A stretch of DNA of 64,000 nucleotides, from NCBI GenBank assembly GCA_963825055.1, contig CAWGSK010000013.1, forward strand, positions 73,399-137,398, in the 5' to 3' direction. Made by a program: the position numbers and the translations under genes. Below the pieces are notes generated by a model, which saw only the letters and a list, made by a program, of their open reading frames with translations, did not search any database and had not been told where the DNA came from. This document shows, one piece after another, positions 5,224 through 49,663 of this stretch. The stretch comes from an uncultured Gemmatimonadales bacterium. Lineage in GTDB: Bacteria; Gemmatimonadota; Gemmatimonadetes; Gemmatimonadales; GWC2-71-9. The number at the start of each line of letters is the position of its first letter. The stretch's first letter is position 1.

Positions 5224-5453
5224 TGTCGGTCCTTTCTCGGAGAATCGAAACTCTTGACGGCCACCCCGCGTCATGCTAAATAACCAGCATAGTGCTAGTT
5301 TTTTAGCATTCGCCGCGGGAGAGGCAATTCCATGGTTCTGCGCCGGCAGGTATCGCAGTGCCGGGACGGGCAGATCATGGAGGACCCCGCGATCCCTGTC
5401 AACCTTACCCGGGTTTGCCGTGTCTTACTGGCTGACCCCGCTCCGGAGCGCCC

Positions 5454-7991
5454 GTGACTTCTGTACTAGGAATCCTGCTCGCCCTGCAGACGACGGCCGC
5501 ACCGCCACCACCGGCGGCGGCCCCAACCACCATCGTGCGCGCCACACTCGTGCAGACGGCGCCCGTCATTGACGGCCGGGACAACGACTCGATCTGGTCC
5601 ATCACCCCGCCGATTACCGGCTTCCTGGAATCGCGCCCGACCGAGGGTGCCCCGCCCCGCCTCGAAACCGAGGCGCGGGTGGCCTACGATGCCCGGAACC
5701 TGTACGTGTTCGTCCGCGCCTTCGACCCGCATCCCGACAGCATCGTGCGCCAGTTGGGGCGCCGGGACGACTACACCGCCAGCGACCGGATCATCCTGAT
5801 GCTGGATTCCTACCATGATCGCAGGACCGGCTACGAGTTCGCCGTGAACCCCGCGGGCGTGAAGGCGGACTACGCCATCTTCAACGACGGCGATGAGGAC
5901 CGGGCCTGGGATGCGATCTGGGATGTTTCGACCCGGGTGGATTCGCTCGGCTGGACGGCCGAGTACCGCATCCCGCTCTCCCAGTTGCGGTACAACGCCG
6001 GCGGCGACGGGACCTTCGGGATTCTCATCTGGCGGGACATCCAGCGCTATACCGCGGTGATGACGTGGCCCCTCTACCGTCCTTCACGCTCCGGGTTCAC
6101 CTCGCAGTTCGGGGAGCTGACCGGCCTGACCGGCCTGGGTGGCACCGGTCGCGCGGAGTTCACGCCCTATGTCGTGACCAAGAACGTGCAGGGACCGGCG
6201 TCCAGCGGATTCGGGCGCGACCAGAAGGTTACCGCGGGCGGCGACGTCAAGTACCGGCTCGCGTCCAACCTGCTGCTCAATGCCACCATCAACCCGGATT
6301 TCGGACAGGTCGAAGCCGATCCCTCCGAATTGAACCTCGGCGCGTTCGAAACCTTCTTCTCCGAGCGCCGGCCGTTCTTCGTGGAGGGGAAAGGGCTGTT
6401 CACCTTCAGCGTCAACTGCGTCATCGTGGTGGACTGCAATACGGGCGAGGGCCTCTTCTATTCCCGCCGGATCGGGCGCTCACCCCAGCTCGCCCCGGTC
6501 TACGGGAACGATGCGTCGGCCAGCGCGACGCGGATCCTGGGGGCGGCGAAAGCCACCGGCCGGCTGCCGGGGGGCTTCTCCCTCGGCGTGCTCGACGCCG
6601 TAACCGACCATATCGACGGGCCGGGCGGCACCACGCTCGAGCCCGCCGCCAACTACGGGGTCGTCCGCGCCAATCAGGACTACAACGGCGGCGACGGAAG
6701 CATCGGCTTCATGCTGACCGCGGTGAACCGCTTCACCGATTCCAGCAGCAGCCCTTACCTGCACCGGAGCGCCTACGCGGCGGGACTCGATGCCCGCCAC
6801 CGGTTCAACGGGCGCTACGAGGTCTCCAGCTCATTTGACGTGAGCCGGGTGGCCGGGAGCGCCGAGGCGATTGCCCGGACCCAGCGGACATCGGTGCACC
6901 TGTACCAGCGACCCGACGATGATCTGGCGTTCGACTCGACCCGCACTTCCCTCACCGGGACGAACATGGAGTTCCGCTTCGCGAAGGTGGGCGGCAGGGT
7001 GCTGCGCTTCGAGACGGCATACCAGCGGCGGACGCCCGGTTTCGAGATCAACGATGTCGGATTCCTCCGCCAGGCGGACTTCCAGGCCTGGACCACCTGG
7101 GCTGCCCTCGCGTTCCGGACGCCCAACCGTGTGTTCCAGCAGCTCCGCTGGAACTTCAACAACTGGGAATACTGGAACGTGGCCGGGCTGCCGACCGAAC
7201 GGGCGTTCAACACGAACGTCCACACCCAGTTCAACAACCGGTGGTGGTTCCACGGCGGCGGCACACTGGGACAGCTCGGGTCGACCTACTGCGACCGGTG
7301 CGCGCGCGGCGGTCCGGCCATCCGGCAGGACCCGTACATCGCCCCGTGGATGGGCATCGAGGGCGATGACCGCCACGCACTCGTGCCCTACCTCTGGGGG
7401 AACTACTTCCTGGGAGACGGCGGCCGGTCCGAGCGCATCAGCCTCAGCCCGGAACTGGACTTCAAGGTCTCCACCCGGTTCACTACCTCCCTGAGCGTGG
7501 ACTACTCCCACAACCGGGATGACAACCAGTACTTCGGGACGTTTACCGGCGCGGGTGGGGCTTCGCATTACACCTTCGCCCATCTCGAGCAGGAGACGCT
7601 CGGCCTGACCTGGCGCCTCGGATACACCTTCACGCCGGAGGCCACGCTCCAGGTCTATGCCTCGCCGTTCGTCTCGCGAGGCACTTATTCGAATGTGCGG
7701 GAGCTGGCCAGTCCGCGCGCAGACGACTACGACGCCCGCTACCAGCCGTACGCTGACCCGGCCGTCGCCGCTGACCCCGGCGGGTTCAACTTCCGCCAGT
7801 TCCGGTCCAACATGGTGTTCCGGTGGGAGTACCGCCCGGGCTCGACCCTGTTCCTGGTGTGGAGCCAGGGACGGCAGGCCTTCGACCCGGTGGCGGGCGA
7901 TCGGAGCTTCGGCGGAGACCTGAACGACCTGCTGGGGCGCCGCGCCGACGACACCTTCCTCGTGAAGCTCTCCTGGTGGTTCGGGCAATAG
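5454..7991 (+). CDS. Large outer-membrane/secreted protein, CBM9-like N-terminus plus DUF5916-like beta-rich body
   Basis: 845-aa intact ORF with a GTG start. APVIDGRDNDSIWS...YDARNLYVFVRAFD resembles the CBM9/DOMON-like fold. The family call is from memory. Confidence 0.65.
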   Translation: MTSVLGILLALQTTAAPPPPAAAPTTIVRATLVQTAPVIDGRDNDSIWSITPPITGFLESRPTEGAPPRLETEARVAYDARNLYVFVRAFDPHPDSIVRQLGRRDDYTASDRIILMLDSYHDRRTGYEFAVNPAGVKADYAIFNDGDEDRAWDAIWDVSTRVDSLGWTAEYRIPLSQLRYNAGGDGTFGILIWRDIQRYTAVMTWPLYRPSRSGFTSQFGELTGLTGLGGTGRAEFTPYVVTKNVQGPASSGFGRDQKVTAGGDVKYRLASNLLLNATINPDFGQVEADPSELNLGAFETFFSERRPFFVEGKGLFTFSVNCVIVVDCNTGEGLFYSRRIGRSPQLAPVYGNDASASATRILGAAKATGRLPGGFSLGVLDAVTDHIDGPGGTTLEPAANYGVVRANQDYNGGDGSIGFMLTAVNRFTDSSSSPYLHRSAYAAGLDARHRFNGRYEVSSSFDVSRVAGSAEAIARTQRTSVHLYQRPDDDLAFDSTRTSLTGTNMEFRFAKVGGRVLRFETAYQRRTPGFEINDVGFLRQADFQAWTTWAALAFRTPNRVFQQLRWNFNNWEYWNVAGLPTERAFNTNVHTQFNNRWWFHGGGTLGQLGSTYCDRCARGGPAIRQDPYIAPWMGIEGDDRHALVPYLWGNYFLGDGGRSERISLSPELDFKVSTRFTTSLSVDYSHNRDDNQYFGTFTGAGGASHYTFAHLEQETLGLTWRLGYTFTPEATLQVYASPFVSRGTYSNVRELASPRADDYDARYQPYADPAVAADPGGFNFRQFRSNMVFRWEYRPGSTLFLVWSQGRQAFDPVAGDRSFGGDLNDLLGRRADDTFLVKLSWWFGQ

Positions 7992-7998
7992 GGTGCGG

Positions 7999-8670
7999 TC
8001 AGCGGAAGGTGACGAACTCCTCGAGCGACTTCTTCGTGATGACGGGGACCACCGCGTCGTCGGCGGGATACCCGACGACGAGCACGAGAAAGGCCCGGTC
8101 GGTGGGCGGGCGCTCGAGCAGGTCGTTCAGGAACCCCATCGGGCTCGGGGTATGCGTGAGCGTCGCCAGGCCCGCATGGTGCAGGGCCGTGATGAGCATC
8201 CCCATGGCGATGCCCACCGACTCACTCACGTAGTAATGCGGTACACGGTACCCTGCCGGGTCCAGGCCGTAGCGCTCACCGAAGACGACGACGAGAACGG
8301 GCGCGGTTTCGAGGTAGGGCTTGTACTCGTCCGTGCCGAGGTGCGCCAGCGCGTCCAGCCAGGTCTGGGGCGCCCGGCCGTGATAGAACGCATGCTCCTC
8401 CGCCTCCGCCGCCACCCGGATCCTCCGCTTGAGTCCCGGATCCGCGACCACCACAAAGTGCCACGGCTGCAGGTTGGCACCGCTCGGCGCGGTGCCCGCC
8501 GCCCGGAGGCATTCCTCCAGCACCTCCCGCGGGACCGGCCGGTCACTGAACTGGCGCACGCTCCGTCGCCGCTCCAGCTCCTCACGGAAGCCCTCCGCCC
8601 TGCGTCGCATCTCCTCCTCGGGGTACTCGCGCCAGGTGTCCAGCGGCCGGAACTTCGGTGCTGCGCTCAC
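7999..8670 (-). CDS. Nitroreductase family protein (iodotyrosine-deiodinase-like)
   Basis: [41 protein letters not shown] motif. GTG start overlaps the upstream TGA (GTGA) at 8667-8670. The 412-aa track ORF is an over-extension. Confidence 0.85.
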
Positions 8671-10772
8671 CGGCCTGGCTCCAGGAGCGCGATCGCCGCC
8701 CGGACCCGCTCCGCCGCCCTGGACACGCCACGCGCCAGGTCGGTGACCTCGTCCCGCGCACGCGCCTGGTCCCGGTCCTCCTGGGCTTCGGCGATGCCCG
8801 GCAAGGCAATGTCCGCGTAGCCATTGTTCCGGTCTGACGCGTACAGCAGGTTGCGCCGCCAGGGCCGGCCGACCAGGCCCTCCGGACGGGACATCGCCGG
8901 CTCCACCTGGCGAAGCGTACCATTCACCCGGGCCAGCAACCCGCGAGGGACGCCAGCGGTAGCCAGTCGGGCGAGACGCGCCCGGTTGAGGGACTCCCCT
9001 GCGTCGGTAAGCAAGGTGATCGCGGCATCCAGCGAGTCGTACGGCAACGCCCACCCGAGGCTGTCGGCCGCACGGCGGGATGTCGCGGCCAGGTCCGCCA
9101 GGCGCCGGCCCAGGACCGCATAGTCGAAGGGCTCCACGTCCGCATTGGCCAGCCGGGACATTGCCACGGCGACCAGGCGACCGGCGGCAGCATGACTCAG
9201 GTAGCCGGGGTCGCCGAAACGCTCCATCCAGGTCCATGTGTCATAGGCCGCATGGTACACCCCGATCGGCCCTCCGAAGCCCATCTCCAGCGCCGGCATC
9301 CCCAGGTGGCTGTAGAACCCGCCGAAATCGCTCCCGCCTCCCATCACGCCGGGAGTGACGTCCGAACTGTCTCCGGGCTGGCGCGCGTCGCGCCAGGCCT
9401 GGTATACCGACATGGTATCGTCCGGCTGGCGCACCGCCCGCGTCACCTCGCGGATGAATGGATAGAGGGATGGGGTCCCGGCGGCCCCGAACCGGCGCCC
9501 GAACGCGGACATGTCCTGGTTCAGGTAGGCTACCAGATGCTGCAGCAGGTCGTCCTCACGCGACTCCACCCATTCCGTGCTGCCCACCAGTCCCCACTCC
9601 TCCGCATCCCAGGTCGCGAAGATCACGGTCCGCCGCGGACGCCGGCCCTGGCGTGCCGCGGTTCCCATTGCGCGCGCAGCCTCGAGCAGGCTCACCGTGC
9701 CGCTGATGTTGTCCGCGGCGCCGGGACCCCAGGCATCGCGGTGCCCGCCGGCGATGACGATCTCGTCCGGCCAGTCGGTGCCCCGAAGCCGCCCGAAAGT
9801 GTTGGTGATGGTCTTCCAGCGTCGCTCCTCGGGCTCGAGCCACACCGCAACACGGACGCGTGTCGCCGAGTCACCGACGTGATACCGGAAGGGGAGTGCG
9901 CCCTGCCAGGGCTGCGGCACCGAGGGACCGCCAAGCTGCCCGAGAATGCGCGCGGCATTGCCGTATCCCAGCGGGATCACCGGGATGTGCGCGACGTCGA
10001 GGCTGTCCGGGGGGAGCCGGCGCGCGCCGGACACGGAGGACCACCCCGGTGTGGTCGGGTCCCCATCGGCGTTCAGGATGCTCCCGCGCTGTACCGCGTC
10101 GGGGCCGCGCATGGGGCCGTCGGGATAGACATCCCCACGGAAGTAGCCGTCATCCTGCGGGTCCGAGTAGAGTATCAGCCCAGCCGCCCCATGCGCTTCG
10201 GCCTCGCGCGCCTTGATGCCGCGGAAGCTGCGCCCGTAGCGCGCGATGACCACCCGGCCCTCCACCGGTACCCCGAGCCGCTCGAGTGCCTCGTAATCCT
10301 CCGCCAGTCCGTAGTTCACGTACACCACCGGCGCCGTCACGTCGCCTTCCCCGCTGGACCCGTTCATCGCCGGCCAGATTCCCGACTGCGTGGTGGGATC
10401 ATCCGGCAGCGCAGGCTCATCCAGGCGGAACCGCCTCGGGGCCGCCCCTTCGAGTTCCACCAGCTGCGAATCCGGATAGGGAAGCCAGACCCGGAACGAC
10501 ACCCGACTGGTGTCGAGTCCCCAGGAGGCCATCTGCCGCAGCACGTATTCGGCCGTCCGCTGCTGCGCAGGGGTGCCGGCCACGTGCGCCTCGGCCGAGA
10601 GGGCGTGCGAGTGCGTCCGTGCGCTCGACGGATCGGGAACGGAGGTAAGCAGCGCTTCAATCTTCGACTGCTGCGCCCAGGTGGCAGGGGTGAATCCCGC
10701 CGGGCGGTCCTGCGCGACGGCGGGGACGGAGGACAGCACGAAGGCGGCAGCCAGCAGGCCGTACATGCGCAT
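8667..10772 (-). CDS. M28 peptidase, glutamate carboxypeptidase II / transferrin-receptor-like
   Basis: 701 aa with a signal peptide, a PA-domain-like segment, the [17 protein letters not shown] and [13 protein letters not shown] zinc-site motifs, and a C-terminal dimerisation-like helix region. Confidence 0.85.
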
Positions 10773-10831
10773 GCGTTGGTATCCTGTGGTGAGGGCGAAG
10801 CTGGAAGGAAATCAGGCCGGGGCCGAAATCG

Positions 10832-11914
10832 CTACCCCTCCGACTGCCGGGGGCGCCGCCCGAAGGTCATGAGTCGACGCAGTCGCCACGTATGGCGCCC
10901 GACTGGATGCTCGGCGAGCTCACGCCAGCGCGCTGACGGGCGCGCCGGCCAGAACCGGGACGCGACACCATGCATCCACGCCGAGGGCGCATGCTGGAGC
11001 GCGAGTTGCGCGGCGATCGGTGCCCGTGCCCGGCGACGCTCGAGCCAGGTGCGGGTGCCCATCCATCGGCGAAGCGGGGCCTGGGTCCAGCCGCCCGGGC
11101 CGCGGATCCGTTCCGGGAGGCCGAGGCGCCGGAGATCGTCAGCGAGAATGGCGCCGAGGGGATGGTCGATCTCGGTGTCGCCGAGATGCAGGAGTACGTC
11201 GAGGAGGAGGATGGCCTGCCAGCCCCCGTGGCGGATGTAGTGCCGGATCAGCAGCTCGAGCTCGTGCGCCGGCGACGGAATCCACATCCCTTCGCCCCAC
11301 GCCCGCCGGTGGGCGAGCATTTCGGCGGTCCCGGGAGACCCGGCCGAGGGCGGCTCGATCCGCCAGTGCACTTCGAGGATGTCATCCCAGCCGGGGATAT
11401 ACGGACGCTGGAACCTGACATGGAACAACTCGCGCGACGGGGACGACCACGGCGAGTAGCCCCGGTCGGTCAGGAAGCGGGTGACCTCCTCCACCGATGC
11501 CCACGGGACGAGAACATCGAGGTCGCGCGAAGGACGGATGGCACCGGAGCCGTACAGGCGCTCGGCCATCGGCGGGCCCTTCATGACCAGCCACGGAACT
11601 CCGGCGCCCTCGAGCAGGTCACGCATCTCGGTGAGCTGCGCGGCCCCGCGCTCCGCGGCGAACCCCGCCAGCCCGACCGCCCGGGCGATGTTGCGGTACG
11701 GTGTCTCCGGGAGGGAACGCAGGTCGGGACCGAGCAGTTGCGCGGCCAGGGGCGCCAGGCGGCTCACCTCGACGTCCACCGCGCCCGCTGCCCACTCCGC
11801 CGGTTCGGGCGAAGCAGCCGGGAGGCCCAGGGCGCGGTGAAGCGTCCAGACGAGGAACGGGTGTTCCCTCTTCAGTGGGCGGCGGCGGCCAGGCAACGTG
11901 CGATCTCCTCCCAT
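10832..11914 (-). CDS. Uncharacterised nucleotidyltransferase (NTP_transf_5-like), RiPP-cluster associated
   Basis: 360 aa; VMKGPPMAERLYG...RPSRDLDVLVP...HWRIEP pattern of the PF14907-type family (from memory). Overlaps the kinase gene by 43 bp. Confidence 0.65.
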   Translation of the reverse strand: MGGDRTLPGRRRPLKREHPFLVWTLHRALGLPAASPEPAEWAAGAVDVEVSRLAPLAAQLLGPDLRSLPETPYRNIARAVGLAGFAAERGAAQLTEMRDLLEGAGVPWLVMKGPPMAERLYGSGAIRPSRDLDVLVPWASVEEVTRFLTDRGYSPWSSPSRELFHVRFQRPYIPGWDDILEVHWRIEPPSAGSPGTAEMLAHRRAWGEGMWIPSPAHELELLIRHYIRHGGWQAILLLDVLLHLGDTEIDHPLGAILADDLRRLGLPERIRGPGGWTQAPLRRWMGTRTWLERRRARAPIAAQLALQHAPSAWMHGVASRFWPARPSARWRELAEHPVGRHTWRLRRLMTFGRRPRQSEG

Positions 11915-12738
11915 GCGTTCGACATCTGCTCCAGGTTCCCGGGCACGGTCAATCGCCAGACGGGCACGGCGGCGGCGAGCCCCCCGACCAGGTCGTGCCA
12001 GGCCGGGGTGGGCTCGGACTCCAGCCAGGAGAGGAATCCAGCATCAACCATGCCGGGGAGACGTGCAACCCCGCGCAGGGCTTCACACTGGACCTTCGAG
12101 CCCCTCTGGAGCAGGAACAGGCCGCGGAGGAGGCCCGGTTCCCCGGCCGGGAGGTCGTACCATCCCCGGCCGTCGGGAAGGACGAGCCTGGGCGACCAGT
12201 CCTGCGGGGCGAGCTCGGGGGGAACCCGCAGCGACCCCGGCAGAGGCAGGATCCCCGCTTTTCCGTCCAGGGCAAGGAGGTCATCCCCCCGGACAGGCCA
12301 GCCGTGTCTCGTGGCCAGCCCCGCGAGGGAGGACTTCCCACGCCCGGACGGGCCGGCGATCGCCACTGTCCCTCCCGGGGTTTCGAGCCCAGCCGCATGG
12401 AGCGGGTAGCATCCAGCGGTGGCGATGGTGAACGCCGTCAGCGGCCCGGTGAGCCGGGTCAGGTGCGCCGGCGAATGTGGATCATGGCCGGGGTCAATAC
12501 TGAACCGGAGTCCGCCATCGAGACGGACCTGGTATCCGCACCCGTCCGGGTACCGCAGACCCCATCCATCCGGAAGGCGCCAGACCGCGGAGCGCCCCTG
12601 CGGCGTATCCGCATGGCGAACCGCCCGAGGATCCGGTGCGACGGCAGAACGCTCGATGATCGGAAGGGGGAGCCCAAGCGCCGCGGAAAGCGCGCACCAC
12701 GCCGCCGACGGATCGGGCGGCGACGGGGCGAGAGGCAC
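11872..12738 (-). CDS. HPr-kinase-related kinase (HprK-rel-A type), putative RiPP kinase
   Basis: LHAAGLETPGGTVAIAGPSGRGKSSLAGLATRHGWPVRGDDLLAL matches the HprK C-terminal P-loop/GDD arrangement. GTG start lies 9 bp after the peptide stop. Confidence 0.75.
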   Translation of the reverse strand: MPLAPSPPDPSAAWCALSAALGLPLPIIERSAVAPDPRAVRHADTPQGRSAVWRLPDGWGLRYPDGCGYQVRLDGGLRFSIDPGHDPHSPAHLTRLTGPLTAFTIATAGCYPLHAAGLETPGGTVAIAGPSGRGKSSLAGLATRHGWPVRGDDLLALDGKAGILPLPGSLRVPPELAPQDWSPRLVLPDGRGWYDLPAGEPGLLRGLFLLQRGSKVQCEALRGVARLPGMVDAGFLSWLESEPTPAWHDLVGGLAAAVPVWRLTVPGNLEQMSNAWEEIARCLAAAAH

Positions 12739-12746
12739 GGAGGAAA

Positions 12747-12893
12747 TCAGCTGCCGAACGCTCCGTCGCTCACGTTGAGCCCGGCCCCACGGGTCAGGTC
12801 CTGGACCCGGCCCAGCGTTTCGAGCCGGGGGGGCTCGAACTCACGGCGGGGTTCGGGACGTTTGCTGTCAGGAGGACGGGACGTGTCTGTCAT
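12747..12893 (-). CDS. Putative lasso-peptide precursor (48 aa)
   Basis: MTDTSRPPDSKRPEPRREFEPPRLETLGRVQDLTR|GAGLNVSDGAFGS. The leader fits (Y/F)xxPxLxxxGxxxxxTx exactly. The core has Gly1, Asp8 and a C-terminal Ser. A GGTGAGG Shine-Dalgarno-like sequence lies upstream of the ATG at 12893. Confidence 0.6.
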   Translation of the reverse strand: MTDTSRPPDSKRPEPRREFEPPRLETLGRVQDLTRGAGLNVSDGAFGS

Positions 12894-14298
12894 GGGCGAC
12901 CTCACCAGGGGAATGGTGCACTTCCACGAAGTGTAGTATGCCGAGTCCACTCCATTGGGTCAAGAAATCGTCGTGCAGGTCAGCCGGCGTGATCCGCCGC
13001 GGAAGCCACGGGATCTCCAGCTGTTCCTGCAGCCGTTCCCAGTCATCCACCATCGCCTGCGCCTCGGACATCACCCGCTCCCTGATCCAGAGGGAAAGAT
13101 CCGCCTTGTCCACCCGACGGACAACCGGCGAGGGTAGGTGCGGTGCGACGGCCTCGCGGAGCAGGGCGCGTGGGAGCCAGCGCGAACCTACCCGAGGACA
13201 CCGGAACCCGGCGACGGCTTCGATGACCCCTCGATCCAGCATCGGCAGGGCGAGCTCGAGGCCCGCCCGGCGAACGGTGGCCGCGGCCATCCGGGTCCGC
13301 CACGCCAGACGGGGATCAGCAAGCGTGTGACGGAGCGCCGCGTGCCGCCAGCTCCCCGCAGAGGCGGCGGCCCCTCCGTCGAGCCCGAGCCGGGACGGCC
13401 GCATCGCGCTCAGGACACCCCGGCCGAGCGTGCGGAGTGCGCCGGCCCGCCGGCGGGCGAGACGGGCCCGGAGCGCGACGGCCGTACCGGCCAGGATCCG
13501 GCCACTCCTGAACAGGTCCACCTCCAGGCCCCGTTCCGCGAACACCTCATCGCCCCCGACACCCCACGCCATGCCCTGGCACCCCGCGCGCCGGGCCAGC
13601 GCGCCGGTGGCGGCGTGCACGGCCTCCATGGCGTCCACCAGGGGCGAATCTCCCCGGGCCATGGCTGCTGCGGACGCCGGCCAGAGCAGCAGCCCGGCGG
13701 CATTCACGGTTGCGAGTTCAAGGCCGAGGTGCGCGGCGACGGCGTCCTGCCACTCGGACTCGTCGCAAGCCAGGCCGGGAAATCGTGCCGAGACGAGCAA
13801 CGGAAGCGGCGCGGCCTCACGCCTCGCGGCCTCCGCCGCCGCGGCCGCGAGCGCTGACGAATCCAGGCCGCCGCTCAGTGAAACGGCCATCCGGCCCGTC
13901 GCAATCACGTGCCGCTGCATCGCCCCCACGAGCGCCTCCCATACCGATTCCGTTGCATCGCCGGGAACGGGAACGGACCACCACGTCATCGGGGAGCCGT
14001 GGGGCTGGCATTCACGCCCGCCTGGGACACAGGTCACGTCGCGGAAGGGGGACAGCCCGGTGAAGCGTAACGCGGCGAGATCCTCGAGCACGTCGAGGTC
14101 GGGAACGGCGCATGGGGTGAGTCGCGCGAGTCGTGCCGGGTCGAGCGCCAGATGGAGGTGGGGGCCGATGCTGCGCAGGCATGCGAGGGGATATACCGGG
14201 GCGGAACGCACGACCGGCCCCAGGGAACCATCGAGCCATCCGGGGTCCGCGCCTGACGCGAGCCCGGGGTCGTGGAGAACGATCCGGGCGGAGGTCAA
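12868..14298 (-). CDS. Asparagine-synthetase-like protein (lasso cyclase-like), short N-terminal domain
   Basis: 476 aa with the PP-loop motif AVSLSGGLDSSALAAAAA. There is no N-terminal Cys nucleophile. 4-bp overlap with the PqqD-like gene. Confidence 0.8.
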   Translation of the reverse strand: MTSARIVLHDPGLASGADPGWLDGSLGPVVRSAPVYPLACLRSIGPHLHLALDPARLARLTPCAVPDLDVLEDLAALRFTGLSPFRDVTCVPGGRECQPHGSPMTWWSVPVPGDATESVWEALVGAMQRHVIATGRMAVSLSGGLDSSALAAAAAEAARREAAPLPLLVSARFPGLACDESEWQDAVAAHLGLELATVNAAGLLLWPASAAAMARGDSPLVDAMEAVHAATGALARRAGCQGMAWGVGGDEVFAERGLEVDLFRSGRILAGTAVALRARLARRRAGALRTLGRGVLSAMRPSRLGLDGGAAASAGSWRHAALRHTLADPRLAWRTRMAAATVRRAGLELALPMLDRGVIEAVAGFRCPRVGSRWLPRALLREAVAPHLPSPVVRRVDKADLSLWIRERVMSEAQAMVDDWERLQEQLEIPWLPRRITPADLHDDFLTQWSGLGILHFVEVHHSPGEVAHDRHVPSS

Positions 14299-14585
14299 CG
14301 GGGCGCCGCCCGGTGGAGAAGCCCCTGCTCCACCAGGCTACGGACAATGCCGGTCAGCATCTCCCAGCGGGCGTGGCCGTCGACCGGCCACGCCGCCAGG
14401 CCCCGGTCCACCTCGCCCAGGTCCTCGCCACGCGCGAGCGCGGCCCAGACTTCTGCGCCGGACCGGTTCAGGCTGTAGTAGGTCCCGGCATCGAGATCGA
14501 GGAGGACCAGCTCGTCGTCCAGTTCCCGGCTGCGCACCGCGGGAGCCGGCACGAACCGGTCCCCGCGCGCAAGGGGTTCCGGCAT
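14295..14585 (-). CDS. PqqD-family protein (RiPP recognition element, B1-like)
   Basis: 96 aa; RSRELDDELVLLDLDAGTYYSLNRSGAEVWAAL is a typical PqqD/RRE signature. Confidence 0.8.
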   Translation of the reverse strand: MPEPLARGDRFVPAPAVRSRELDDELVLLDLDAGTYYSLNRSGAEVWAALARGEDLGEVDRGLAAWPVDGHARWEMLTGIVRSLVEQGLLHRAAPR

Positions 14586-14589
14586 GATG

Positions 14590-16101
14590 TCAGGGAATCT
14601 GGCCGGTGACGTCCCAGATCATCAAGGCCGGGCTGGAGGGATTCTTCGCGCCGAACACATACACCCGCCCCCCGATGTACCCGAAGGTGGCCGTGTGAAT
14701 CCCTGTCGGGACCATGTAGGACGTGATCCGCGTCGGGCGGAGCGGATCGGCCAGGTCATACAGGTAGATCCCCGAGCCGGTGCCGTTTTCACCGCTGAAG
14801 AGCAGCATCCGGCCATCACGCGACACCTCGACATCGCTGATGGTGATGATGCCGGAGGTGAGGATCGAGTCCGCAAGGGTCGGCGCGCCGGTGGCATCCA
14901 GCTGCCAGATCTTGAGTGCGTTGCCCGAATTCGATGGCCCGCCCGACGCGCGCAGTCTCCAGGTCCCCGTGTAGGCCACTCCGCCGTGCACCCAGAGGTC
15001 GGACGTGAACCGCTCGGGCACGTTGCCACCGCCAGCCACCCTGGAGAGCACCCCGCCGTTCGACGACAGCTGGTAGAGTCCGTTCAGCATGTCCGTGGCG
15101 TAGACCGAGCCGTTGTATTCCTGCACGCCCCAGACGTAGGTGCTGTCAGGATTCGGGGGGAAAAAGCTCAGTACCCTGCTGTTCAGGCTCCCACTCAGGA
15201 CGCCGGAGATATCCAGCGCGAGCACCCCGCCATTGTAGTAGGCGGCATAGAGGATTTCCGCCTGCTCGTCCACCCAGAAGTTGTGCGTGCCGAATCCGCT
15301 GCGATGGAACGTCGCGACCTGGACCGGCTTCCGCAGGTCGGTCACGTCCAGGACGAAAATGTCACCCGACGCCGCGGTACCGATGACGCCCGGACCCTCC
15401 TGTCCGAGGAAGAGGTACTTCTTCTCCCCGGTGTTGGGATTGTGGAACCACCACGAATTGTGCACCGCGCCGCCGCTCACCCCGACCGTACCCGCGAGCA
15501 CGGGGGTCGAGGGACTTCCGCCCACGATACCGTTGCCGACGTCGTAGATCCGCATGCCGCTGTTCCACGCGCTCACGAACGCGAGGCCATCGCGCACGAA
15601 GGTGTCGTGGATGCCGTAGTTGGGCGGGATGGCGACCTGTGCGACAAGGACAGGCCCGGTGGTCCCCACCGACGTGACCGTGAAGCTCACGGCGGTCATG
15701 GTGGCATCGGTATTCGCCAGCGACGGCGCGCTCGCCTGGACCTTGCTGGTCAGGGTTCCCGTGCCAAGGCGCACCGTCATGTATGCCTTCCCGTCGGCCC
15801 CGGTGCTGGACTGGCTCGAGTCGACCGTCGCGTTCCCCGAGGTCACGCTCCACTGGACCGGTACACCGGCGAGCGGCGTGCCGGAGGTGTCGCGCGCCAG
15901 TGCGGCCAGCGGGGTGGGAAGCACTGCTGCTTCCGGACCCTTCTGGTGGTTTCCTCCTCCGATCGACAGCACCTGGCCGCTTCCGGCCGGGGACGGCGGT
16001 TGCGAGGGGTCGTTCGGGCCGGTGGCTGGTGCATCCGACCTGCACGCGGTGACAACCCCGAGCAGGACGAGCGGAAGGAAGGCATGTCGCATTCGTGGCA
16101 C
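14590..16101 (-). CDS. Lipoprotein with Ig-like (Big_2-like) domain and LVIVD/beta-propeller-like repeats
   Basis: Lipobox LLGVVTAC; Ig-like segment GVPVQWSVTSGNATVDS...; repeated hydrophobic-D/G propeller-like blocks. Its stop is 4 bp from the PqqD start. Confidence 0.55.
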   Translation of the reverse strand: MPRMRHAFLPLVLLGVVTACRSDAPATGPNDPSQPPSPAGSGQVLSIGGGNHQKGPEAAVLPTPLAALARDTSGTPLAGVPVQWSVTSGNATVDSSQSSTGADGKAYMTVRLGTGTLTSKVQASAPSLANTDATMTAVSFTVTSVGTTGPVLVAQVAIPPNYGIHDTFVRDGLAFVSAWNSGMRIYDVGNGIVGGSPSTPVLAGTVGVSGGAVHNSWWFHNPNTGEKKYLFLGQEGPGVIGTAASGDIFVLDVTDLRKPVQVATFHRSGFGTHNFWVDEQAEILYAAYYNGGVLALDISGVLSGSLNSRVLSFFPPNPDSTYVWGVQEYNGSVYATDMLNGLYQLSSNGGVLSRVAGGGNVPERFTSDLWVHGGVAYTGTWRLRASGGPSNSGNALKIWQLDATGAPTLADSILTSGIITISDVEVSRDGRMLLFSGENGTGSGIYLYDLADPLRPTRITSYMVPTGIHTATFGYIGGRVYVFGAKNPSSPALMIWDVTGQIP

Positions 16102-16111
16102 GGAAGCCCCG

Positions 16112-17386
16112 TCAGTGGTGAGTCGGTGAGGGCGAGAGCAGGCCGTAACGACCCATGCGGTGCATCGGGCCGCCGGCGGTCAGGCGGACGCCAAGCGTGA
16201 GCGCCTCGAACGACTCCCGGCCATACAGCCCCTCAACCGTAAAGACGCCGCCCCCGACCTTCCGTGCACGCCCGAGGGAGACCTCGCCGAACGGCTCCGC
16301 CGCGAGCCAGGACAGCGGTTCGAAACGAAAGCCATAGCCGACCGTGTGGATGGTCCACCGGCTGGTCCCGAGAATGGAGTTCTCCCGGTGGGGGCGGAGC
16401 GAGCGGAACAGGTCGGCGGTCCGCTCCTCCTCGGGACGCGAGGTACGCTCAAACCGGTACCAGGCCTGGTGCCGGCCCGGGCTCACCGCCGCCTCGACCA
16501 GCACCGTGTGAAAGACGAAGAAGCCGTTGAGCTCCGAGTTGCGGGCCCACTCGGCCATGGCGTACACCGGCACGCCGAGCGCCGGACCCTTCCAGCGCCC
16601 CGAGAGGCTCCACTTGCCCTGGGTGCTGCCCGCCCCCGGGCGATGCTCGGGAGACTTCACCTCCGCGTGCGATCCCTGCAGCTCCAGGCCCGTGACCGGT
16701 TGCACCAGCAGCCTGGCGGACCAGGAGTCCCCGAATCGCTCCAAGCTGGGCCATTGCCCGGGCCGCTCCGGTTCATCGCCGTTGAACAGCCCCGCCTCGA
16801 GCGACAGCGGTCCCAGGCCGACGGCCGCAATCGCGACCGCACGCTCCAGAATCTGGCTCCAGTGGTGGTTCACCGGATACCGGAGCACGGGGCGGTTCAT
16901 CGGGTCGTCCGTCCCGTACGGCGCGAACCCTTTCCCCACCGTAACGGAAGTGTGGAAGGGGCCCTGGCGGTTGCCGAACGGGTCCACGAGGCTCGCCAGC
17001 AGTTCGTGCACGTAGGTGTGCGGGTGGCGGCGGTCGACGAATCCCTCGCCCCAGATGCCGGGATCGAGCTCGCCGCCGGGCATGGTCCAGCCCTCGGCGT
17101 TCCCGGTGGCGGTGAAGCGGAGCCGCCCCCCGAGGACCCCGGCGTGCAGCATGAGGACGGGCTGCACGACCCTGATCTCGTCCAGCGCGCGGCCACCGGG
17201 TATCGGATTGACCCGGGTCCAGGACGGCACGGCCTGGGCCCGCACGCGAAACCAGGCGTCAGGCGCCTGGGCGCTCGCCGGAGGCGACGTCAGGACCAGG
17301 GCCAGAAGTGCGACTGGCAGGCCGGCCGGGTGGGGGCGCGGCAGGAGGGGGGGCATCGTGACTCCGGAGTCCGGGAGGGGCGACAT
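16112..17386 (-). CDS. Hypothetical secreted / outer-membrane beta-barrel-like protein
   Basis: Signal peptide ending PPASAQA and a C-terminal aromatic-rich beta pattern. No family recognised. The start may be the internal M at 17356. Confidence 0.45.
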   Translation of the reverse strand: MSPLPDSGVTMPPLLPRPHPAGLPVALLALVLTSPPASAQAPDAWFRVRAQAVPSWTRVNPIPGGRALDEIRVVQPVLMLHAGVLGGRLRFTATGNAEGWTMPGGELDPGIWGEGFVDRRHPHTYVHELLASLVDPFGNRQGPFHTSVTVGKGFAPYGTDDPMNRPVLRYPVNHHWSQILERAVAIAAVGLGPLSLEAGLFNGDEPERPGQWPSLERFGDSWSARLLVQPVTGLELQGSHAEVKSPEHRPGAGSTQGKWSLSGRWKGPALGVPVYAMAEWARNSELNGFFVFHTVLVEAAVSPGRHQAWYRFERTSRPEEERTADLFRSLRPHRENSILGTSRWTIHTVGYGFRFEPLSWLAAEPFGEVSLGRARKVGGGVFTVEGLYGRESFEALTLGVRLTAGGPMHRMGRYGLLSPSPTHH

Positions 17387-17432
17387 TCCCTCGTTCGGAC
17401 GCCGCGCCGGCCCCGGGTTGCACAGGGCGACG

Positions 17433-18179
17433 TTACCTGGTGGTCACCGACGCCTTGAGGTAGTCCCGGTTCATCCGCGCGATGACGTCCAGCGGGATCA
17501 CTTTCGGACAGGCCGCTGTGCATTCACCATGGTTGGTGCATCCGCCGAAATGTTCCAGGTCCATCCGGGTGATCATCTCCAGGGCACGCCGGTCCCGCTC
17601 CGCCTGGCCGTGGGGCAGCCGGCCGAGGTGCGAGATCTTGGCGCCGGTGAAGAGCATCGCGGAGGCGTTGGGGCAAGCGGCCACGCAGGCACCGCAGCCG
17701 ATGCAGGCCGCGGCGTCCATCGCCTCCTCGGCCACGTCCTTGGGCACCGGGATGGTGTTGGCGTCCGGGGCCGACCCGGTGGAGATGCTGACATAGCCGC
17801 CGGCCTCGATGATCCGGTCCAGCGCGCTCCGGTTCACGACCAGGTCCCGGACGACCGGGAAGGCGCGCGCCCGCCACGGCTCGATGACGATCCGGTCGCC
17901 GTCCCTGAAGCTTCGCATGTGCAGCTGGCAGGTTGCGGTGCCGGGCATCGGGCCATGGGCCATGCCGTTGATCATCATGCCGCAGGAGCCGCAGATCCCC
18001 TCGCGGCAATCGTGGTCGAACGCAATGGGCTCCTCGCCACGCTCGATCAGCCCCTCGTTCACGACGTCGAGCATCTCGAGGAATGACATCTCGGGACTGA
18101 TGTCAGTGGCCTCGTACGTGACCATGCGGCCCTGGTCGCCCGGGCCGGCCTGTCGCCAGACGTGCAGCGTGAGCTTCAT
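17433..18179 (-). CDS. sdhB: Succinate dehydrogenase / fumarate reductase iron-sulfur subunit
   Basis: [23 protein letters not shown] and [12 protein letters not shown] cluster motifs. Confidence 0.95.
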
Positions 18180-18188
18180 GCGTCCGCC

Positions 18189-20102
18189 CTACTTGTAGCT
18201 GCGCTGGGCGAGGGGCACGTACTCGAAGTCGAGCGGCTCCTTTTCCAGCATCGGTTCGCGGTCGTCGCCCTGGTACATCCAGGCGGCGACGTAGGAAAAC
18301 TCGTCGTCCTTCCGTTTGGCCTCCCCGTCGGGAGTCTGGCTCTCGACGCGGAAGTGGCCACCGGCCGACTCGGTCCGGTGCAGCGCGTCCCGGCACATCA
18401 ACTCGCCCAGTTCGAGGAAGTCCGCGACCCGCCCGGCCTTCTCCAGCGACTGGTTGAGGGTCTCGCCACTCCCGAGCACTCGCACGTCGCGCCAGAACTC
18501 GGCGCGGAGGGCCGGGATCTTCTCGAGCGCGGTCCGGAGGCCCGCCTCCGAGCGCGCCATGCCGCAGTACTCCCACATGACGTGCCCGAGTTCGCGGTGG
18601 AAGGCGTCCACCGTCCGGGAGCCGTTGACGTCGAGCAGGCGGTGGACGCGGCCCTCGACGTCCCGCACCGCAGCCGCCGCGGCGTCAGTCTCGGGCCCCA
18701 GGTTGTCCGGCCGGTGCGCAGCGAGGAAGTTGCCGATGGTGTACGGCAGGATGAAGTAGCCGTCGGCCAGTCCCTGCATGAGGGCGCTGGCGCCGAGCCG
18801 GTTGGCGCCGTGGTCGGAGAAGTTTGCCTCGCCGATCACGAACAGGCCGGGAATGGTGCTCTGGAGGTTGTAGTCGACCCAGAGCCCGCCCATGGTGTAG
18901 TGCACCGCGGGGTAGATCCGCATGGGCACTGCGTAGGGGTTTTCCGCGGTGATCCGCTCGTACATCTCGAACAGGTTGCCGTAGCGCTCGGCGATCACGT
19001 CGCGGCCGACCCGGCGGATCGCGTCGCCGAAGTCGAGGTACACGCCCCGCCCGGTCTCCCCCACCCCGCGCCCCTCGTCGCAGACTTCCTTCGCCGCGCG
19101 CGACGCGATGTCCCGCGGCGCGAGGTTCCCGAAGCTGGGGTACTTCCGCTCCAGGTAGTAATCGCGGTCGGACTCCGGGATGGCGGTGGGCGGACGGTGA
19201 TCGTCTGCGCGCTTCGGCACCCAGACCCGGCCGTCGTTCCGGAGCGACTCGCTCATCAGCGTCAGCTTCGACTGGTATTCGCCGGACACCGGGATGCAGG
19301 TGGGATGGATCTGGGTGTAGCACGGGTTCGCGAAGGCGGCGCCGCGCTTGTAGGCGCGCCAGATGGCCGTGGCGTTGCTGCCCTTGGCGTTGGTCGAGAG
19401 GTAGAAGACGTTGCCGTAGCCGCCGGTGCCCAGCACCACGGCGTCGGCCATGTGCACGTCCACCGCCCCCGTCACCAGATTCCGCGTGACAATGCCGCGC
19501 GCCCGGCCGTCCACCACGACCAGGTCCAGCATCTCCGTGCGGGGGAACATCGTCACCTTGCCCGCCCGGATCTGGCGTTCCAGCGCCTGGTAGGCGCCCA
19601 GCAGGAGCTGCTGGCCCGTCTGCCCGCGCGCGTAGAACGTGCGGGAAACCTGGGCGCCGCCGAAGGACCGGTTGGCCAGGGTCCCACCGTACTCGCGGGC
19701 GAACGGCACGCCCTGCGCCACGCACTGGTCGATGATGTTGACGCTGACCTGGGCGAGACGGTACACGTTGGCCTCACGGCTCCGGAAATCCCCCCCCTTC
19801 ACCGTGTCGTAGAACAGGCGGTAGATGCTGTCCCCGTCGTTCTGGTAGTTCTTGGCGGCGTTGATCCCGCCCTGGGCCGCAATGCTGTGGGCGCGACGGG
19901 GGGAGTCCTGGAAGCAGAAGCACTTGACGTTGTAGCCCAGCTCCCCGAGCGTGGCGGCGGCGGACCCGCCCGCCAGCCCGGACCCGACCATGATCACGGT
20001 GTATTTCCGCTTGTTCGCCGGGTTCACCAGCTTCATGTCGAAGCGGTGCTGGTCCCACTTCTCCTGGATCGGGCCTGCGGGAACGTTGCTCTTCAGTGCC
20101 AT
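18189..20102 (-). CDS. sdhA: Succinate dehydrogenase flavoprotein subunit
   Basis: 637 aa; [14 protein letters not shown] motif, [18 protein letters not shown] and HYTMGG motifs. Confidence 0.95.
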
Positions 20103-20140
20103 GGATCAGCAGCCTCTCTGCGACAACCGGCCGTCCGGCA

Positions 20141-20806
20141 TCACTGGACGACCCCGAGCCAGACGGCGATGGGTATGCTCATGAACGCGAGCCCGATCAG
20201 CAGCCCGACCACCAGCGCGAGGGGGCGGCGCACCGCGTTCCAGCGCGGATGGTTGAGCCCCAGGGTCTGGAACCCGCTCCAGATACCGTGGATGAGGTGG
20301 AGGGTGAGCGCGGCCATGGCCAGGATGTAGAACAACGCCACCCACCAGACCTGGAGCCCGGTCACGAGGTTCCGGTAGACGGTGTGAACGTCGAAGTCCG
20401 GCCAGGTGGGGTGCAGGACGCCGACAGTGAAATGGAGGATATGGTAGATGATGAAGACGAAGAGGAGGATGCCGCCGTACCGCATGGTGCGGGAGGCGAA
20501 GGTCGATCGCTCCGGCTCCCACTCGCGGTAGCTCCGCCCGCGGGCGCGCCGGTTGAGGGCAATCAGCCGGAAGGCGCTGTCGGCGTGGAGGATCACCGCC
20601 ACGAGCAGGATCGCCCGCACAGACCAGACCAGCAGCGGCGCACTCTTGAGCAACGCCGCATACCCGTCCATGGCCTCCGCCCCGCCGTACACCAGCATGT
20701 TGCCCGCCACGTGAACCACCAGGTACCCGAGCAGGATAATCCCGGTCACGGCCATCACGATCTTCTTGCCGATCGTGGATCGGTAGAACCGGGTCACCCA
20801 GCGCAT
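20141..20806 (-). CDS. sdhC: Succinate dehydrogenase cytochrome b (b558-type) subunit
   Basis: 221-aa five-TM protein immediately upstream of sdhA, with His-rich helices. Confidence 0.85.
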   Translation of the reverse strand: MRWVTRFYRSTIGKKIVMAVTGIILLGYLVVHVAGNMLVYGGAEAMDGYAALLKSAPLLVWSVRAILLVAVILHADSAFRLIALNRRARGRSYREWEPERSTFASRTMRYGGILLFVFIIYHILHFTVGVLHPTWPDFDVHTVYRNLVTGLQVWWVALFYILAMAALTLHLIHGIWSGFQTLGLNHPRWNAVRRPLALVVGLLIGLAFMSIPIAVWLGVVQ

Positions 20807-20809
20807 GGC

Positions 20810-21739
20810 TCAGGCCCCCATGGCCTGCATCGTCTCGCGCACCGCATCGGCGGACTGGCGGAGCGCGGTCCGTTCCTCCTCCGTCAGTTCCACCTCGATC
20901 ACCTGCTCGAGCCCGGCGCGGCCCAGCTTGCACGGCACCCCGCAGAAAACCCCGTCCAGCCCGTACTCCCCGGTGAGCCACGCGGCGCAGGGCAGGATCC
21001 GCTTCTTGTCCAGCGCGATCGCCTCCACCATCTGCACCGCCGCGGCGCTCGGTGCGTAGTAGGCCGACCCGGTCTTGAGCAGGCCCACGATCTCGGCCCC
21101 GCCCTTGCGGGTCCGGTCGACGATGGCGTCGAGCCGGTCCTGGTCGATCAGCTGGGTGACGGGAATGCCACTCACCGTGGTGTAACTGATCAGCGGCACC
21201 ATCGTGTCCCCGTGCCCGCCCAGCACCATCGCCTGGATGTCCTCCACCGAGACGCCGATCGCCTCCGCGAGGAAGCTCCGGTAGCGGGCAGTGTCCAGGA
21301 CGCCGGCCATCCCGATCACCCGCTCGCGGGGAAAGCCGGAGGCCTGCATGGCCACGTAGCACATCACGTCGAGCGGGTTGGACACCATGATGATGATCGA
21401 CGCCGGCGCCACGCGCGCGATTTCCTTCGCCACGCTCGAGACGATACCGGCGTTCGTCTTGACCAGGTCGTCCCGGCTCATCCCCGGCTTGCGGGCGATG
21501 CCGGCCGTCACCACGAAGACGTCGCTGTCCCGGGCCTCGTCGTAGGCGTTGGACCCGACCAGGCTGGTATCGAAACCCTCGATGGGGGCCGACTCCCACT
21601 GGTCGAGCCCCTTGCCCTGGGGCACACCCTCCACGACATCCACCATGACCACGGTCCGTGCGAGCGACTTTTCGGCCAGCCGCTGCGCCACGGTGGCGCC
21701 CACGTTCCCGGCTCCGACTACGGTCACCTTGTTCAGCAT
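20810..21739 (-). CDS. mdh: Malate dehydrogenase (LDH-like type)
   Basis: [12 protein letters not shown] Rossmann motif, [23 protein letters not shown]. Confidence 0.95.
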
Positions 21740-21802
21740 GCCCCGGCTCTCACTGTCAGGTAAGGAAGGACGGCTGCCGGGACGGGCCCGGCGGGGCGGA
21801 AG

Positions 21803-22285
21803 TTAACCGGGTCGGGTTGAGCGGGCCAAGTTGGCCAGCGCGCCCGTGGCGCGCAGCGCTTCGTACAGCACGATGCCCGCCGCAGTCGCGAGGTTGAGAC
21901 TCCGGATGTTGCCGTTCATCGGGATGGTGAAACAGCGCTCGGGGTACTTGTCCAGGATCCGGGGCGGCATGCCCTCCGTCTCGCTTCCAAGGACCAGGCA
22001 GCCATTCGGCTGCCACGGCGCCTCGAGATAACTCCGCGTCGCGTTGGCCGAGAAGTAGAGGCAGCGCTCGGGCGCCATGACATGCCGGAATTCCCGCCAG
22101 TGGCGGTGCACCCACAGGTCCACGTGGCGCCAGTAGTCGAGCCCCGCGCGCTTCAGGTCCGCGTCCTCAAGGGTGAATCCGAGCGGCTCGATGAGGTGCA
22201 GGCTGGTCCCGGTCGCCGCACAGAGCCGGGCGATGTTGCCGGTGTTGGGAGGGATCCGGGGCTCGATGAGGGCGAGGTGGGGCAT
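21803..22285 (-). CDS. trmL: tRNA (cytidine/uridine-2'-O)-methyltransferase, SpoU/TrmL family
   Basis: 160 aa; LIEPRIPPNTGNIARLCAATG...GSETEGMP...IPM...RSLNLATAAGIVLYEA. Confidence 0.9.
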   Translation of the reverse strand: MPHLALIEPRIPPNTGNIARLCAATGTSLHLIEPLGFTLEDADLKRAGLDYWRHVDLWVHRHWREFRHVMAPERCLYFSANATRSYLEAPWQPNGCLVLGSETEGMPPRILDKYPERCFTIPMNGNIRSLNLATAAGIVLYEALRATGALANLARSTRPG

Positions 22286-22405
22286 GCCGGGAATCGTGAA
22301 TCGGGAGGTAGTGGAATAGGGAATCGGCCGTGCAATGCGTAAGGTAATCCCCAGCTCACGACCCCCGATACCCGATCAACGCAGGGACGATCGGCCGGCG
22401 GGTCG

Positions 22406-48675: not shown

Positions 48676-48701
48676 ACCGGCAATATCATACTGTACAGTC
48701 C

Positions 48702-49651: not shown

Positions 49652-49663
49652 CCGGACCTGCTC

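Follow-up and report, generated by a model that had tools for sequence, protein, structure and literature searches.

The stretch of DNA analyzed here (64,000 nt of a contig from an uncultured Gemmatimonadales bacterium; the window) carries five tightly coupled minus-strand genes at 10832-14585 (~3.75 kb), in the order B1-C-A-K-N. These genes very probably constitute a lasso-type cluster with an HprK-like kinase (K) and an NTP_transf_5 family enzyme (N), in which the leader peptidase B2 is not encoded in cis. The accepted view, as presented in reviews, is that lasso biosynthesis requires A, B (B1 + B2) and C. In the window the precursor, the recognition element and the cyclase of a lasso pathway are present, whereas B2 and an exporter of the paeninodin type are not, so that the cluster represents a variant of the phosphorylated lasso pathway. 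Its working principle is that of the paeninodin, pseudomycoidin and Bsf systems; what is new is a conserved family that has neither B2 nor an exporter, whose cyclase is short and whose core, at 13 aa, is minimal. The reading that we favor, with a probability of about 0.5, is that of a functional, vertically inherited lasso operon tailored by K and N, from which B2 and the beginning (5′ part) of the gene for C have been lost and whose product matures without a cluster-encoded protease.

Gene content of the cluster

The open reading frames (ORFs) were verified at the coordinates listed below. RRE stands for the recognition element of a peptide that is made on the ribosome and altered after translation (RiPP).

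14295..14585, minus strand: B1, PqqD-like RRE, 96 aa (Pfam PqqD and conserved position)
12868..14298, minus strand: C, short Asn-synthetase-like macrolactam cyclase, 476 aa, TTG start (Asn_synthase match)
12747..12893, minus strand: A, 48-aa precursor, ATG start (lasso leader spacing)
12789..12893, minus strand: leader part of A, 35 aa, MTDTSRPPDSKRPEPRREFEPPRLETLGRVQDLTR, with F(-17), P(-14), L(-12), G(-8) and T(-2)
12750..12788, minus strand: core part of A, 13 aa, GAGLNVSDGAFGS, with a predicted Gly1-Asp8 ring
11872..12738, minus strand: K, HprK/PEPCK-fold P-loop kinase, 288 aa (H114, G134-K135-S136, D152-D153)
10832..11914, minus strand: N, enzyme of the NTP_transf_5 family, 360 aa if the longest ORF is taken (PF14907; DxD at D131/D133)

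The tight packing described in an earlier note, which had been made from the sequence alone, was reproduced: the stop of B1 overlaps the start of C by 4 bp, A and C overlap by 26 bp, K begins 8 bp past the stop of A, and N and K overlap by 43 bp. The length of 476 aa for C is the longest possible in its ORF. The five gene identities proposed in that note also held when profile hidden Markov models were applied, with matches to PqqD (PF05402, 4.7e-7) for B1, Asn_synthase (PF00733, 9.5e-23) for C and NTP_transf_5 (PF14907, 1.1e-24) for N, while K was identified by its homologues, residues and fold, and A by its leader. The score of B1 (30.5 bits) is above the Pfam cutoff of 23.4; its match to the NCBIfam model lasso_PqqD_Strm (2.4e-8) is below the cutoff of that model. 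Orthologues of B1 occupy the same position in nine related loci (L001, L002, L003, L039 and L041-L045).

A sigma-70-like promoter match was detected at 12935..12963 on the minus strand, within the 3′ end of C and directly upstream of A. It is the sole promoter-like site in the region 8000-22500, where ~0.8 would be expected by chance; it may thus have arisen by chance, or may act within the operon to raise transcription of the precursor gene. An Rfam scan of the window gave no match.

The precursor peptide

The start codon of A is preceded, 5 nt upstream, by the Shine-Dalgarno-like sequence GGTGAGG. The known leader rule of lasso precursors is YxxPxL at positions -17 to -12 and Thr at -2, the latter being critical for enzymatic processing (PMC10368454). 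The 48-aa product is read as the leader MTDTSRPPDSKRPEPRREFEPPRLETLGRVQDLTR followed by the core GAGLNVSDGAFGS and, counted from this junction, the leader obeys that spacing exactly, with F(-17)xxP(-14)xL(-12) and T(-2). The score against the NCBIfam model lasso_leader_L3 (NF033521) was near the threshold (18.1 bits, cutoff 19). The core starts with Gly1, has Asp8 as predicted ring acceptor, a 5-residue tail and a C-terminal Ser. The 13-aa core put forward in the earlier note thus stands, with the junction after Arg(-1), the T(-2) spacing and Asp8 in place, and so does the lasso-type assignment, for which leader spacing, Asp8, the RRE and the PP-loop cyclase speak together. The calculated [M+H]+ values for the core are 1133.52 for the dehydrated form, 1213.49 with phosphate and 1375.54 with phosphate and hexose, as against 1151.53 for the linear core.

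That note had made its proposal depend on a conserved small ORF at this position, and a homologous one follows the cyclase gene in all nine related loci that reach that far (L003 ends just past the cyclase). The leader motif is kept in 10/10 precursors recovered, i.e., those of the nine loci and the window. An acidic residue is located at core position 7-9 in every family member (D7, E7, D8 or D9 in the relatives), and the remaining core residues diverge, as in GSGSNFTDGFFGS, AFNPGSNTDFTFSSF, KSGGPTDATLGDSP and DFVTPGSGDFTLTGFMS. Even the first residue of the predicted core differs (G, A, K or D). The core ends in Ser in the window and in L001, L002, L039 and L043, and in another residue in L040 (..DSP), L041 and L044 (..SSF), L042 (..NFE) and L045 (..SGA). 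A constant leader and acidic position combined with a varying core is the pattern of an active RiPP family, and is hard to reconcile with a non-lasso product.

A clade of short cyclases

The Asn_synthase match of C spans residues 121-419 and includes the PP-loop S142-G-G-L-D-S147; no GATase domain was matched by Pfam in this protein. When C was aligned with canonical cyclases of ~570-620 aa, ~95 N-terminal residues were absent, together with an internal segment of the GATase-like domain, which bears out the reduced N-terminal domain that the earlier note had suspected. The AlphaFold model of C (predicted local distance difference test, pLDDT, 89.7) retains the entire synthetase domain and has a reduced, beta-rich N-terminal lobe, and Foldseek matched it to TsnB9, AsnB, beta-lactam synthetase and carbapenam synthetase.

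The clade to which C belongs was defined by searching 1.84 billion representative proteins exhaustively with HMMER. Only 12 clusters, that of the window's C included, were found at E<=1e-30, and a gap then extends to ~1e-17, where the proteins are mostly ~600 aa long. The complete sequences of the short clade have 401-496 aa, and several other members are shorter fragments. The C proteins are 30-38% identical to one another and keep the catalytic motifs. To our knowledge this clade has not been described previously, and we know of no established function for the N-terminal domain of lasso cyclases. In a word-indexed search, the best-scoring homologue of C outside the clade was the cyclase of L004, a locus in which B2, A, K and N complete the lasso cluster. 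We also considered whether a B2 domain might be hidden in the N-terminus of C; this was rejected, since the Cys of its 'PLACLRS' segment is not conserved and the B2 profile gave no match there.

The kinase and the NTP_transf_5 family enzyme

With K alone, only weak, P-loop-centred matches were obtained (HprK_rel_B, 1.7e-4; HprK_rel_A, 9e-4; ScmC, 1.2e-3). Its scores were below the curated cutoffs of TIGR04352, TIGR04355 and TIGR04249 (18-21 bits versus 125-200), with only the P-loop region aligning, and membership of K in the TIGR04352/TIGR04355 'HprK-related' systems or in a SynChlorMet ScmC cassette was rejected on these scores. The earlier note had named Hpr_kinase_C (PF07475) as a check for this gene; the check failed with the window's K alone, but succeeded with 27 of the 56 sequences of alignment A5 (the window's K plus 55 database homologues). 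Within A5, H114, G134, K135, S136 and D153 are invariant and D152 is kept in at least 90% of the sequences; in a smaller alignment of eight sequences (A3), H114, K135, D152 and D153 are all invariant. The His-to-Lys and Lys-to-Asp spacings of 21 and 17 residues are identical to those of BsfK (H148...K169...D186-D187). A PDB search by sequence only, using the K profile, returned only P-loops of ABC (ATP-binding cassette) transporters. The AlphaFold model of K, run with the database homologues, had a pLDDT of 94.8, and Foldseek matched its fold to PEP carboxykinases and to HprK/P (1kkl and 2qmh). Because of the conserved residues, their spacing, the Hpr_kinase_C matches of the homologues and the fold, K is identified as a lasso-type HprK-like kinase, although the single sequence misses the curated cutoffs. 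Proteins named after Gemmatimonadaceae or Gemmatimonadetes occur only among the distant homologues of K.

In the source annotation, K is apparently given as P0200, a protein of 164 aa that covers 57% of the ORF at 99% identity. Such a call would omit 124 N-terminal residues, the catalytic His114 included, and the homologues of 277-309 aa favor the long ORF.

N carries the DxD motif as D131-L-D133 and has orthologues in L001, L041, L043, L044 and L045. In the pseudomycoidin system, PsmK polyphosphorylates the C-terminal Ser, PsmN is needed for the addition of a hexose to the phosphate, and a D134A/D136A double mutant of PsmN is inactive (PMC6993621); D131/D133 of N corresponds to this pair. The Bradymonas bsf cluster likewise holds bsfK and bsfN (PMC10368454). 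Since psmN and bsfN are the same kind of gene beside the same kind of kinase, K and N represent the known tailoring pair of the paeninodin, pseudomycoidin and Bsf type, and N is ordinary for the subtype. The suggestion in the earlier note that N is an unusual extra, perhaps a nucleotidylating one, is therefore abandoned, because PsmN is needed for the addition of a hexose and not of a nucleotide. The phosphate transfer to the C-terminal Ser that was proposed there is plausible for the precursor of the window, but does not extend to the family, where a terminal Ser is not general; moreover, BsfK phosphorylates Ser3 (PMC10368454).

Absence of B2 and of an exporter

Neither phmmer with a B2 sequence nor a search for the CLxRAL...HAW motif found a B2 in the window. 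A B2 profile iterated to 10 sequences, one of them from a Gemmatimonadaceae metagenome-assembled genome (MAG), gave no match in the six-frame translation of the entire window, and none in ten related loci (L001-L003 and L039-L045). PF13471 was not matched in Pfam scans of ~54 selected ORFs across 1-64 kb, a selection rather than every gene. The Pfam matches in the flanks were all to housekeeping or unrelated genes (nuoAB, dcd, M1, M28 and M17 peptidases, sdhCAB, mdh, glycolysis, dnaB, radA, ligD/ku and RHS), and several flanking ORFs had no Pfam match. As for an exporter, no ABC_tran domain was found in the scanned ORFs of the window, no ORF of the window combined a Walker A motif with the ABC signature, and no ABC exporter was called in the ten related loci. 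In L044, 20.7 kb of a 472-kb contig carry neither B2 nor an ABC transporter, and in L045 the 10 kb upstream are free of B2. The lack of both genes that the earlier note had seen within several kb thus extends to all 64 kb and to the homologous loci; within the window there is also no canonical B2 and exporter just beyond the region it had read, an arrangement that would have made this an ordinary paeninodin-type cluster.

Two other candidates for a leader protease were rejected. The M28 peptidase encoded at 8667-10772 bears a signal peptide and is a member of a family of exopeptidases; relatives have a sulfatase gene or M1 peptidases in its place. A 162-aa ORF between a sulfatase gene and N in L044 was examined as a possible B2 and resembles the C-terminal part of K. 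Metallopeptidase genes (M1, M28/TFR-like, M17 and M20) are located at 2201-4429, 8667-10772, 41540-43075 and 49571-50806 of the window, and in L044 two M1 peptidase genes (14040-17986) directly abut N; none of the metallopeptidases of the window and L044 is consistently linked to the cluster.

Conservation of the cluster and comparison with B2-bearing loci

The ten related loci have the arrangement PqqD - short C - A - K - N as far as their contigs reach, with the exception of L040, where C directly follows an FG-GAP gene and has no adjacent RRE. When the window was compared with L001, the ratios of nonsynonymous to synonymous substitution rates (dN/dS) were 0.20 for B1, 0.21 for C, 0.25 for A, 0.22 for K and 0.10 for N, and 0.11-0.13 for flanking genes, values that indicate purifying selection on all five genes. 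The cluster adjoins sdhB in one sub-lineage (the window, L001, L043 and L044) and has a different genomic context in L045. The window and L044 also share the housekeeping synteny around it, with sdhCAB upstream and an M1 peptidase gene, dcd and nuoA downstream.

All ten fetched loci with a B2 match have B2 in the same locus as C, and in most of them directly beside it. In L029 (a Gemmatimonadaceae MAG) and L013 (a Dehalococcoidia MAG) the order is B1-B2-C-A-K-N, so that the window departs from the canonical order only in lacking B2 and the 5′ end of C, and the simplest origin of the window's cluster would be a single deletion across B2 and the start of C. L029, L013 and L004 share with the window the B1-(B2)-C-A-K-N order, the leader motif and homologous B1, C, K and N proteins, but B2 lies directly before a cyclase of ~570-650 aa in these loci, and their proteins are ~25-40% identical to those of the window. 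The lasso cluster of L004 comprises B2, C, A, K, N and B1 together with an ABC transporter; among these three loci, the ABC transporter was sought in L004 only.

Among the fetched loci in which K was matched and C is flanked on either side by 7 kb or more, eight were without B2 and seven with it, counts that come from a biased sample including metagenome contigs and that depend on the sensitivity of the B2 profile. Those without B2 include loci of Thermoanaerobaculia and Holophagales whose precursors are cleanly lasso-like, e.g., one with a leader ending in YEPPRLVLFGDLRTLTL and the core GPSPGIGESGNPALFKSV. In lasso-like C-A-K loci of other phyla (L005, L007, L008, L015, L016, L027 and L100) we observed clean YxxPxL...T(-2) precursors with a Gly1...Glu8 core, e.g., GPSPGIGESGNPALFKS; B2 was not detected by the profile in these seven loci, and B1 was detected in L005 only. 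In L007 and L008, large Peptidase_C25 (gingipain-family) genes adjoin C and A.

Comparison with characterized systems

The closest parallels are found in known clusters that contain a kinase of this kind. The pseudomycoidin cluster psmCAK-B1-B2-N-D of Bacillus pseudomycoides DSM 12442 (PMC6993621) shares with the window the HprK-like kinase, the DxD-containing NTP_transf_5-like enzyme and a precursor that ends in Ser. It differs in that it encodes B1, B2, an ABC exporter and a full-length cyclase, whereas the window has neither B2 nor exporter, a cyclase ~95 residues shorter and a much smaller core. Pseudomycoidin was produced in E. coli and B. subtilis also without B1 and B2 (PMC6993621). In the paeninodin (pade) system of Paenibacillus dendritiformis C454, and with ThcoK and SyanK, a His-Lys-Asp-Asp kinase phosphorylates the C-terminal Ser of the linear precursor, and B is split into B1 and B2 (PMC9266682); pade has B2 and D but no N, and in the family of the window only some of the precursors end in Ser. 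The Bsf cluster of Bradymonas sediminis FA350 (PMC10368454) resembles the window in A, B1, C, K and N, in the YxxPxL motif at -17 to -12, in the Gly1-Asp8 ring and in the H...GxxGxGKS...DD motifs of the kinase at identical spacing, and its B1 speeds phosphorylation. It differs in having B2 and D, Ile(-2) where the window has Thr(-2), and Ser3 as the target of BsfK. For Stanieria cyanosphaera PCC 7437, one sentence in the literature notes a C-A-K cluster that has no B genes (PMC6993621). Like the window, it combines a lasso-type cyclase, a precursor and a PsmK-like kinase without a leader peptidase gene; unlike the window, it also lacks B1 and has a glycosyltransferase in place of N.

Proposed maturation pathway

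By analogy with homologous systems, the 48-aa precursor would be bound by B1 through the F(-17)xxP(-14)xL(-12) leader. K, helped by B1, would then phosphorylate a Ser of the linear precursor, with Ser13 the most likely target and Ser7 the alternative; the catalytic His, Lys and two Asp residues and the fold of K are observed, and the target residue is predicted. N, with its DxD motif, may decorate the phosphate in the way in which PsmN does with a hexose. The leader would be cut after Arg(-1) by a non-dedicated cellular protease encoded outside the operon. This is the least certain step: we give such a protease a little less than an even chance, and a B2 encoded elsewhere a lower one. The short C would adenylate Asp8 and join it to the amine of Gly1, which would leave an 8-residue ring and a 5-residue tail, with the side chain of Phe11 and the modified C-terminus as candidate plugs.

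That the maturation is truly independent of B2 has, in our estimate, slightly less than even odds. More tentative is a wider version, in which a whole lineage produces lassos without any B2, has shed half of the N-terminal domain of its cyclase and removes leaders by a non-dedicated or unrecognised protease. It might further be, and we put this forward with the same reserve for the statement as a whole, that the N-terminal domain of canonical cyclases works mainly with B2 and that the operon is tied functionally to the secreted beta-propeller protein and the ~430-aa envelope protein encoded upstream.

Alternative explanations

Several observations weigh against a B2-independent lasso operon. 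The strictly conserved Thr(-2) is a known recognition element of the B/B2 peptidase and would fit a B2 that acts in trans. A B2 profile built from only 10 sequences could miss a highly divergent protease, and the absence of B2 holds for the window, which is 64 kb of a 327-kb contig. The lack of a C-terminal Ser in part of the family makes the kinase target uncertain. Both the RRE and the cyclase fall far short of the cutoffs of the NCBIfam models that are specific to lassos (35.6 bits versus 525 for C). Finally, reported lasso cores have 13-33 aa (2026 review), and a 13-aa core with a 5-residue tail is therefore at the lower limit for lassos, which makes the threaded topology uncertain.

The first of these points leads to the strongest rival, which we regard as possible though less than probable: an ordinary lasso pathway whose B2 gene lies at another place in the genome, either by itself or within a second lasso cluster, with its product acting in trans together with the local B1. 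Not only Thr(-2), which is critical for enzymatic processing, but also the YxxPxL spacing is strictly conserved; B1, the normal partner of B2, is retained; a B2-K-N cluster exists in the Gemmatimonadaceae MAG locus L029, proteins named after this lineage are among the distant relatives of K, and the part of the genome inspected is the 64 kb of the window. However, in ten out of ten fetched B2 loci B2 accompanies C, mostly directly beside it, and none of the ten short-cyclase loci, from at least two sub-lineages, shows a B2, which includes the 20.7 kb of L044 and the 10 kb upstream in L045. The loss would be ancient, as judged from the 30-38% identity of the C proteins, so that an arrangement in trans must have persisted and co-evolved with fast-changing precursors. 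In addition, B1 and residue (-2) have a role in the kinase reaction as well: BsfK works faster with B1, and phosphorylation in Bsf is influenced by residue (-2) (PMC10368454), and for this reason the retention of B1 and T(-2) may be explained without any B2.

A non-lasso product, in which the peptide would undergo another modification (e.g., side-chain amidation or a phosphodiester-linked decoration) and the leader would not be cut at the T-x/core site, is unlikely. The truncated cyclase with its low score against the lasso-cyclase model, the lack of a protease in the cluster, the varying first residue of the predicted core and the additional sulfatase/alkaline-phosphatase-superfamily enzyme in some relatives would all be compatible with it. 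Nevertheless, it hardly explains why every precursor has an acidic residue at core position 7-9 and the exact leader spacing, and it runs counter to the best-scoring outside homologue of C in the word-indexed search being the cyclase of a B2-A-K-N lasso cluster (L004) and to the agreement of the gene order with the B1-B2-C-A-K-N clusters L013 and L029. A decaying remnant, i.e., a deletion of B2 and the 5′ end of C with the other genes kept as passengers by synteny beside the sdh operon, would fit an architecture that looks like a single deletion and the housekeeping synteny shared by the window and L044, but is very unlikely given dN/dS values of 0.10-0.25 in all five genes, ORFs that are intact in eleven loci with junctions still translationally coupled, catalytic motifs kept at 30-38% identity, a precursor that keeps its motif and ring acceptor while the rest of the core diversifies, and the different genomic context of the cluster in L045.

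Implications

The surprise lies in the naturally absent peptidase and the truncated cyclase, which together provide a natural test of the necessity of B2. A family that is naturally devoid of B2 and selectively maintained would show the peptidase to be dispensable under natural conditions too, beyond the experiment in E. coli. It would also offer a compact five-gene system of ~3.75 kb for very small phospho-tailored lasso scaffolds, and a natural deletion series for the N-terminal domain of the cyclase. Tools for genome mining, RODEO among them, detect lasso clusters through B, and B2-less clusters would be systematically missed by B-dependent mining. Zyubko et al. have suggested that B-less clusters are overlooked (PMC6993621). 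If B2 is encoded elsewhere in the genome, the operon would be part of an unusual split cluster with a compact cyclase, which would be useful for engineering and unsurprising.

Neighbouring genes and other features of the window

Two genes upstream of B1 are possibly associated with the cluster:

14590..16101, minus strand: 503-aa lipoprotein, Big_1 domain plus choice-of-anchor-B-type region; ends 4 bp before B1
16112..17386, minus strand: signal-peptide protein, 424 aa, no Pfam or NCBIfam match; 10 bp upstream of the Big_1 gene

The first product matched Big_1 (6.9e-10) and choice_anch_B (9.6e-11), and a Big_1 gene is located directly upstream of B1 in L001, L002, L039, L041, L043 and L044. 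The same position is occupied by a non-homologous FG-GAP repeat protein in L040 (19-1830), L042 (2-577) and L045 (within 5369-9750), and in L045 the FG-GAP gene overlaps B1 by 4 bp. Hence, a secreted repeat protein is encoded upstream of the RRE (of C in L040) in every short-cyclase locus in which the upstream gene was examined and, where the contig reaches, its gene is preceded by one for a signal-peptide protein of ~430-450 aa. Orthologues of the 424-aa protein are present in L001, L002, L043 and L044, and the equivalent position in L045 encodes an unrelated, outer-membrane-like signal-peptide protein of 447 aa with a C-terminal Trp. The secreted repeat protein could have a functional link to the cluster (as target, as receptor or in export), or its position could reflect mere synteny. 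An FG-GAP protein is also encoded after K in the Thermoanaerobaculia locus L008 (16658-20374).

A membrane-anchored enzyme of the sulfatase/alkaline-phosphatase superfamily is encoded between K and N in L044 (10732-13010) and after N in L041 (5041-6126); the ..SSF cores of these two loci suggest a different tailoring chemistry. The 162-aa ORF that resembles the C-terminal part of K is also found in L044.

Farther from the cluster, the region 53690-63538 of the window has a GC content of 0.58-0.63, compared with ~0.69 elsewhere. It carries two RHS-repeat genes on the minus strand (54356-59278 and 61091-63538), each followed by small ORFs without a family match, and resembles a polymorphic-toxin/immunity island. 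At 46177-49544, LigD (with ligase, primase-polymerase and phosphoesterase domains) and Ku form a non-homologous end joining pair, which is unrelated to the lasso cluster.

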